64,000 bases of DNA from a virus (taxonomy: Duplodnaviria; Heunggongvirae; Uroviricota; Caudoviricetes). The translations under genes and the position numbers were made by a program. Every line of letters starts with the position of its first letter. Position 1 is the first letter of the stretch. The notes under the pieces were generated by a model. It made no database searches. It was given only the letters and a program-made list of their open reading frames with translations, and had not been told where the DNA came from. Below are positions 54,313 to 55,869 of the stretch, one piece after another. Where the stretch lies: IMG/VR virus record IMGVR_UViG_2851938318_000001; one strand, written 5' to 3'.

Positions 54313-55124
54313 GTCTCATCTCCCTTGAGCAAGTCTCTGTGACGCAAGTGATGCGTCGTATGTTTCTGATACATTCCGCCGTAATAAGCACGACAACTAA
54401 GGCGGTCGATCTGGTGATGAAGAATCATTCCATCGCCGATATAAACCGCGCAGTGGTCAGGCATTTTCCCGTATTGGATAAAGAAGATGTCCCCACGTTG
54501 AGGCTCTGTTCCGGGCGCAAGACGCACCAATCCCTCGTTACGGTAGTTCTGATCGAGAATGTCGTTATCGCCGGTGTACCACGATGGAATATGCAGGTGT
54601 GCGTTCGGGTTTAGTTCGACGTTAAACTCACGCTTCAAATAGTCCCGACACAACATCCAGCAATCGAATACGCCAAATACATACGGTCTGCCCAGGTATG
54701 GCATTTCGAAACCATCAGGTGTGATCACATTCATCTCGCTAAAATGGAAAGGGGCATCTCCCTCAACATTCTTGCGAATAGCCAGAATCATCCACGGAAC
54801 TTCCGTCGCTTCGCAGCCTGCACGATCGGCATCAGATGCTTCTGCTGATTCATCAGTATGTGAATGCCAGATTGCGATAACATCACCCGCATCCTCTGCC
54901 GCCATAATGTCGTCAACGTGCATTACAAAAGTGTTCTGCTGGTTCTCCGAAACATTTCGCGCTTCCATAAAGCGATATTTGTCGCCATTAGTTCTAACCA
55001 GAAAGCCACACGCTTCATTAGGGTAGCGATTTATGGCGCAGAGATAGATTTGCTGCATAACGTCAGAGCCAAGCTCAGGGATTGCTTTATTACCCATACC
55101 GCGTAGCTCCAATAAATCCGCCAA
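54300..55124 (-). CDS. Tail assembly protein K-like (MPN/JAB plus NlpC/P60 domains)
   Basis: JAB-like HSH..E..S.D motif region and C-terminal Cys/His papain-like signature; lambda K position. Confidence 0.65.
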   Translation of the reverse strand: MADLLELRGMGNKAIPELGSDVMQQIYLCAINRYPNEACGFLVRTNGDKYRFMEARNVSENQQNTFVMHVDDIMAAEDAGDVIAIWHSHTDESAEASDADRAGCEATEVPWMILAIRKNVEGDAPFHFSEMNVITPDGFEMPYLGRPYVFGVFDCWMLCRDYLKREFNVELNPNAHLHIPSWYTGDNDILDQNYRNEGLVRLAPGTEPQRGDIFFIQYGKMPDHCAVYIGDGMILHHQIDRLSCRAYYGGMYQKHTTHHLRHRDLLKGDETCLS

Positions 55125-55787
55125 AATGGATCACACCGTCGGCAAAATAATTTCGACGCGCATTACAGGCGTCATAACGTTTTGTGCAGTAATCCGCACC
55201 AGACATAGACGTCTGCTGGTTATTTTTGTCGAAATATGGACCGGTATAGCCGCATTCTGGCCCTCGGTATTTCCACGGGCAGGTGTTTTTAATGATCTGA
55301 CGATACGGCAGTTGCACCCCCATCAAATCGAACACACTGGACAATTCAAACTCGACAACCTGATGAGTTTCGAGAGTTTTCTGTTCGATAAACCACATTT
55401 CATCCGGGAAATGTTGGTTTGGATCTGCTGTTGGGTTGCCGTCTTAAAATTAACGGCATCGAGGAAGCGAGCCAGCGTCATCTTGCGAATAATGCGGCAG
55501 CCAACAAGATCGTCGTTCGCCTGAACTTCCGCAGAGACGGTTCCGGCAAAGTTCGATACCTGAATTTTTGGACGTGGCAACGTTCCCTGGCCAGTTTTGT
55601 CAAAGCCTGATGCTTTGATTGGCCACGGCTCGTATGTCACTCCTTGCCAGACGACCGGTTGCATCAGTTCGTTTGTTCCGGCGTGGAAGAATAACTTCCC
55701 CCCTGAAGTTGTGTTCGACATATCCAGTACGAACAACTCAATGAGTGCAGAGGGAGATAAGCTCTGAATATCAGCTTTAATTCCCAT
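55090..55787 (-). pseudogene. Minor tail protein L-like with internal frameshift near 55443-55448
   Basis: N-terminal ORF (to ...RFLDAVNF) and C-terminal ORF (ADPNQHFPDEMWFIEQ...CPWKYRGPECGY) are both L-like but in different frames. Confidence 0.6.
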
Positions 55788-55869
55788 TGTTTCATCCTTG
55801 AAATAAGTAGGCGCTAACATCCTGTCAGCGCCACAATGATAGTAAATTAGTACTTACTTATCCAGATGC

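Follow-up and report, generated by a model that had tools for sequence, protein, structure and literature searches.

The minor tail protein L of phage lambda (gpL; PDB 8IYK chain L; PF05100, TIGR01600) has 232 aa and is encoded within the gene order M-L-K-I-J. Its residues 154-232 form an iron-binding domain, in which Cys173, 182, 205, and 212 hold a [4Fe-4S] cluster (PMC10721106); the gpL domain boundaries and the Fe-S cysteines used here were taken from this report. Groups of phage-plasmids have also been described (PMC7969092). SSU5, Cyrano (= pLF82), Y. pestis pMT1, and S. Typhi pHCM2 are SSU5-like phage-plasmids, and all of them share backbone with the window, i.e., the whole stretch of 64,000 nucleotides analyzed in this study. 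When one missing base is restored, the L gene of the window resembles lambda gpL in its length, its four C-terminal cysteines, and its gene order. As it stands, unlike lambda gpL, it is broken after codon 115, with just the first half in frame. Our results strongly suggested that a genuine loss of one base (AAA to AA at Lys115) made the tail-tip gene L a pseudogene, and that the E. coli phage-plasmid carrying it was defective even before. The deletion is probably recent, and it is probably neutral as well.

The L pseudogene (minor tail or tail-tip hub protein L) lies on the minus strand at 55090..55787 and has 698 nt, compared with 699 nt in the intact gene. Translation probably begins at the ATG at 55787, which agrees with how RefSeq annotates the sister plasmid pRM9131-1, and not further upstream, where the first-pass annotation had placed the end of the gene region at 55820. 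From this start, an N-terminal fragment ORF (55323..55787, minus strand) encodes 154 aa, consisting of 115 native and 39 out-of-frame residues, and stops at the TGA at 55325-55323. The C-terminal half of L (DGNPTADPNQ...ATRYG) is found in the -1 frame at 55090..55442 on the same strand, with possible ORF starts at ATG 55398 (102 aa) or ATG 55323 (77 aa). The latter ATG overlaps the stop of the N fragment as TGATG (55325-55321); the 77-aa ORF spans the cysteine-rich end of L and was among the gene calls on two contigs, L006 and L045, the former from Logan.

Both halves were assigned to the same family by profile searches. The minus-strand ORF 55323-55820, or 55323-55787 from the likely start, matched positions 3-93 of 206 in Pfam Phage_tail_L (E 2.7e-40), and the ORF 55090-55398 on the same strand in the other frame matched positions 106-206 (E 3e-42). 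With TIGR01600, the NCBIfam equivalog model "phage minor tail protein L" with a curated cut-off of 70.75 bits, the N half covered positions 1-110 with 176 bits and the C half covered positions 124-224 with 171 bits. Judged by these matches, the finding of both halves of one family in adjacent frames at such E-values is far beyond chance. After the A was restored, the L gene encoded 232 aa identical to WP_000511445.1, which matched TIGR01600 over its full length (model positions 1-224) with 396 bits and lambda gpL (8iyk_L) with an E-value of 4.5e-44. The first-pass annotation had claimed that the L-like halves lie in different frames with the switch near 55443-55448, and that one added base would restore a protein like lambda L; the profile matches and the alignments bore out both claims.

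One continuous ORF for the N-terminal beta-sandwich (HDI) and the C-terminal iron-binding domain was looked for in the window, and the frameshift after codon 115 was found to interrupt it. The C-terminal frame encodes four cysteines (in TCPW, PECG, DYCT, and DACN), which are kept in orthologues, align with the cysteines of the F2-pyocin hub protein, and by homology would bind a [4Fe-4S] cluster. On sequence grounds, L in the window is a pseudogene of the PF05100/TIGR01600 family, which has no uninterrupted ORF and otherwise shows the sequence, the cysteines, and the synteny of the family.

The lesion was then located to a single base. On the minus strand, positions 55451-55441 read AATTTTAAGAC in the window, while pRM9131-1 and phage Cyrano read AATTTTAAAGAC, as did every relative examined at this site. 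What is left of the AAA codon of Lys115 is the AA at 55444..55445 (minus strand), flanked by T4 at 55446-55449 and by G at 55443. Aligned end to end with the intact 699-nt L gene of pRM9131-1, the L gene of the window showed 0 mismatches and 1 gap, located at reference nt 345, the third base of the Lys115 AAA codon; among the closest relatives aligned, the missing A is the sole difference in the 699-nt gene. Lys115 itself is retained in the N fragment, where it is read as AAG. The restored peptide across the site therefore includes the Lys and reads ...DAVNFKDGNPTADPNQHFPDEMWFIEQ..., so that the peptide proposed in the first-pass annotation, which omitted this residue, held only insofar as one base restores the frame. 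Its description of an A/T homopolymer stretch was likewise correct in part: a one-base lesion does occur there, but the run is merely A3 (now A2) beside T4 and is not long. Orthologues from Y. pestis, Salmonella, and Enterobacter have NFKDGNPTADPNQHFPDEMWF across the site, and in the comparison with orthologous L genes that had been proposed as a check, the orthologues were uninterrupted and the window was without one A.

The distribution of the two alleles was examined in public collections. In exact-pattern searches, the deletion allele gave 0 matches each in the GTDB species genomes, IMG/VR, and the JGI metagenomes, while the pattern of the intact allele, used as a control, matched 28 IMG/VR contigs; at least 1000 contigs encode the intact 232-aa L protein. 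Logan, which consists of assemblies built directly from public sequencing runs, contains an exact match to the 154-aa frameshift product on contig SRR7826944_152 (L006; 18,583 bp), recorded in 2 samples. This contig, which has AATTTTAAGAC at the site, aligns gap-free and with 100% identity to positions 52814-64000 of the window (11,187 bases). Its end lies 27 nt into the IS1203 that interrupts gene J, as would be expected if a k-mer assembly of short, accurate reads had broken at the repeat. The deletion allele was thus seen only in the window and in SRR7826944; it is private to one lineage and is supported by a read-based assembly.

Other public contigs with L called in pieces (L007, L008, L015, L046, and L049) were considered as recurrences of the deletion and rejected, as all of them have AAA at the site. 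In L007 (2610-3309), L is split by a 1-base insertion at nt 317; in L015 (460-1153), a metagenome contig of 1.5x coverage, it is split by a 5-base deletion; and in L008, L046, and L049, the pieces are due to runs of N in scaffolds.

We next describe the element that carries the gene. The window is an SSU5/pHCM2-like E. coli phage-plasmid. A plasmid replication gene, repA at 1-1056, which is identical to repA of pRM9131-1, and an SSU5-type siphovirus structural module lie on one replicon. The 23-kb tail region shares 97% identity with pLF82; over the 901-base L region, identity is 99% with Cyrano and 84.6% with Salmonella phage SSU5. Every match in complete E. coli genomes (218/218) was on a plasmid. 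The best match in the phage, PLSDB, and complete E. coli RefSeq collections was always pRM9131-1 (NZ_CP028430.1), which came from cattle faeces in Salinas; a literature search on strain RM9131 returned no reports.

When window positions 17623-64000 were aligned with 112924-66546 of pRM9131-1 (46,379 bases), there were 0 mismatches and a single gap, which is the deletion in L; the other blocks common to both are 100% identical. The differences between the two plasmids lie in larger rearrangements. The window has an extra IS1203 at 1102-2411, not found in pRM9131-1 and 250 bp from the next copy, and several blocks between IS copies are inverted. A 3.6-kb segment at 3972-7618 is present in the window and absent from pRM9131-1. 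Many other SSU5-like E. coli plasmids have this segment in their backbone directly behind repA (99.4% identity), so pRM9131-1 must have lost it. In those plasmids, the segment carries an SPFH-domain protein and DUF7238, along with a gene whose annotation is RecA or LAGLIDADG endonuclease. The ORF of a 5'-3' exonuclease at 15992-16987 is uninterrupted in the window, while in pRM9131-1 an IS1203 is inserted there. As the window keeps the 3.6-kb segment and the uninterrupted exonuclease ORF and has an extra IS1203, neither plasmid descends from the other; the two are sisters.

Altogether, six identical 1310-bp copies of IS1203 (IS3 family) were found in the window, at 1102-2411, 2662-3971, 7621-8930, 17623-18932, 39580-40889, and 51531-52840. 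The differences in IS1203 copies between the two plasmids suggest recent, active transposition together with IS-mediated inversions, and with six IS1203 in 64 kb, the window has the appearance of a phage-plasmid that is being reduced by decay to a plain plasmid. Some other features of the element were also observed. The start of a dnaE-like ORF at 8854-12441 (1195 aa) falls within the terminal part of the IS1203 copy at 7621-8930. In pRM9131-1, too, the annotated start of dnaE overlaps the IS, and the insertion may have replaced the native 5' end of this gene. A tRNA cluster (Ser-TGA, Thr-TGT, Tyr-GTA, and Asn-GTT) lies on the minus strand at 27413-27970 and is also annotated in pRM9131-1. A pair of a DUF1778 antitoxin and a GNAT-family toxin (sister-plasmid annotation) at 41051-41888 adjoins an IS1203 copy.

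The first-pass annotation had left two options for the lesion, a real inactivating mutation or a homopolymer error. A sequencing or assembly error would mean that the strain has AAA and that one A was dropped in the consensus calling of the deposited assembly. The lesion does have the look of such an error, being a 1-base indel in a short A run beside T4, and single-base homopolymer indels are the commonest residual error of long-read assemblies; apart from it, no small difference separates the window from its sister plasmid, where the gene is intact, and outside SRR7826944 the allele was unseen in the public collections searched. Nevertheless, an artefact is unlikely, because an independent read-based assembly, that of the SRR7826944 reads, carries the same deletion on a contig of 18.6 kb in perfect agreement with the window. 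Moreover, there is no sign of an indel-prone assembly, because the window shows no other small difference from pRM9131-1 over ~58 kb, and A3 is too short for a typical homopolymer-error site. SRR7826944 may share a DNA preparation with the deposited assembly, in which case it would exclude an error of the assembler or polisher and not a mutation acquired in culture; a culture-acquired and a natural mutation are indistinguishable from these data. The real mutation is therefore the favoured option, given the same allele in the Logan assembly and no other indel relative to the sister plasmid.

Recoding or a functional split of the gene would also leave the downstream half of L in the -1 frame, as observed. 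In that case, a -1 slip of the ribosome or of transcription at AAT TTT AAG would yield full-length L, or a 154-aa N fragment would cooperate with a 77-aa C fragment produced by re-initiation, and the stop of the N fragment does overlap the ATG opening the 77-aa C-terminal ORF. Against a slip, an X XXY YYZ heptamer is missing from the zero frame (GTT AAT TTT AAG ACG), and in the -1 frame (TAA TTT TAA GAC) a TAA stands directly 5' of the sole useful entry codon, GAC, so that tRNA-Lys would need to re-pair with UAA. No stable stimulatory structure was predicted in the 83 nt downstream (MFE -12.3 kcal/mol vs a shuffle mean of -10.45, z = -0.70). The frameshift also lacks conservation, as every orthologue examined has an uninterrupted L. 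T4/A2 is too short for transcriptional slippage. Programmed -1 frameshifting was thus ruled out by the lack of a heptamer, the TAA in the -1 frame, the lack of downstream structure, and the lack of conservation. A split, for its part, would cut within the HDI beta-sandwich and lose residues 116-155. Because there is no slippery heptamer, no RNA structure, and no conservation of the frameshift, we rejected programmed recoding, and recoding or a functional split as a whole appears very improbable. It is even harder to believe that the broken L still functions, either through the 154-aa fragment and a 77-aa fragment re-initiated at TGATG or through a rare -1 slip at AAG; re-initiation at TGATG is conceivable, yet the pieces would miss residues 116-155. 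If this were true, L would be a naturally split or recoded tail-tip hub protein.

The real deletion in L was considered further together with its neighbours. The lambda-like order is kept in the window, with the tape measure gene (TMP, 56248-60828) followed by M, L, K, I, and J. Upstream of L lies an intact M (distal tail protein; 55870..56205, minus strand; PF05939, E 4.1e-34), and downstream of it lie K (JAB + NlpC/P60 peptidase; 54300..55097, minus strand; Pfam PF14464 and PF00877, and sister-plasmid annotation) and an I-like gene (53719-54312). The tail-tip gene J is interrupted by the IS1203 copy at 51531..52840 (minus strand), which separates an N-terminal piece of ~287 aa (52838-53707) from a C-terminal piece of ~1270 aa (47661-51506), both on the minus strand. 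pRM9131-1 carries this insertion at an identical position; there, a gpJ pseudogene followed by IS1203 is annotated, and L is intact. The J insertion would be the older lesion, because it is common to the window and to pRM9131-1 with its intact L. Thus IS1203 would have hit J first, selection on the tail would then have been relaxed, and the frameshift in L would have come later, by neutral decay, in a phage-plasmid maintained solely as a plasmid. We infer from this order that the tail was probably dead before L broke.

As to the protein, the deletion would leave a product of 115 native and 39 nonsense residues, which, by homology to lambda gpL, would end inside the N-terminal beta-sandwich (HDI). 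The entire C-terminal domain, with its four-cysteine [4Fe-4S] cluster, would be missing from the truncated L, no L3-J3 ring could form at the tail tip, and L function would be lost. The ATG of K overlaps the stop of L (ATGGGTAA), so K is possibly translationally coupled to L, and its translation may suffer too. The interrupted J and the frameshifted L, as read from the sequence, would argue against the production of infectious virions.

For annotation, these results mean that the frameshifted L should be labeled as a pseudogene, not as two small genes, and that the plasmid should be treated as a defective phage-plasmid. The locus also offers a small, clean example of the order of decay in a domesticated phage-plasmid, with J probably lost first, by IS1203, and then L by a point deletion, and the two sister plasmids are several IS events apart, yet only one small mutation separates them in ~58 kb. 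L belongs to a known family on a known kind of element, and nothing here is new in kind. The closest counterpart is the L gene of pRM9131-1 (WP_000511445.1), which has the same DNA but for one base, the same flanking genes, and the same IS1203 in J; it differs in having AAA and an intact L, and its plasmid further differs from the window by the IS1203-linked rearrangements and the 3.6-kb segment. Compared with the other SSU5-like phage-plasmids, the window has six IS1203, a disrupted J, and a frameshifted L, and it is probably a defective derivative. A tail gene lost by a single-base frameshift is also known from laboratory lambda, in the side tail fibre gene stf (PMC10721106), where the loss is tolerated since prevailing conditions do not require the gene. 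However, stf is dispensable for the infectivity of lambda, whereas L is an essential part of the tip, and its lesion would be tolerable only if virion production no longer matters.
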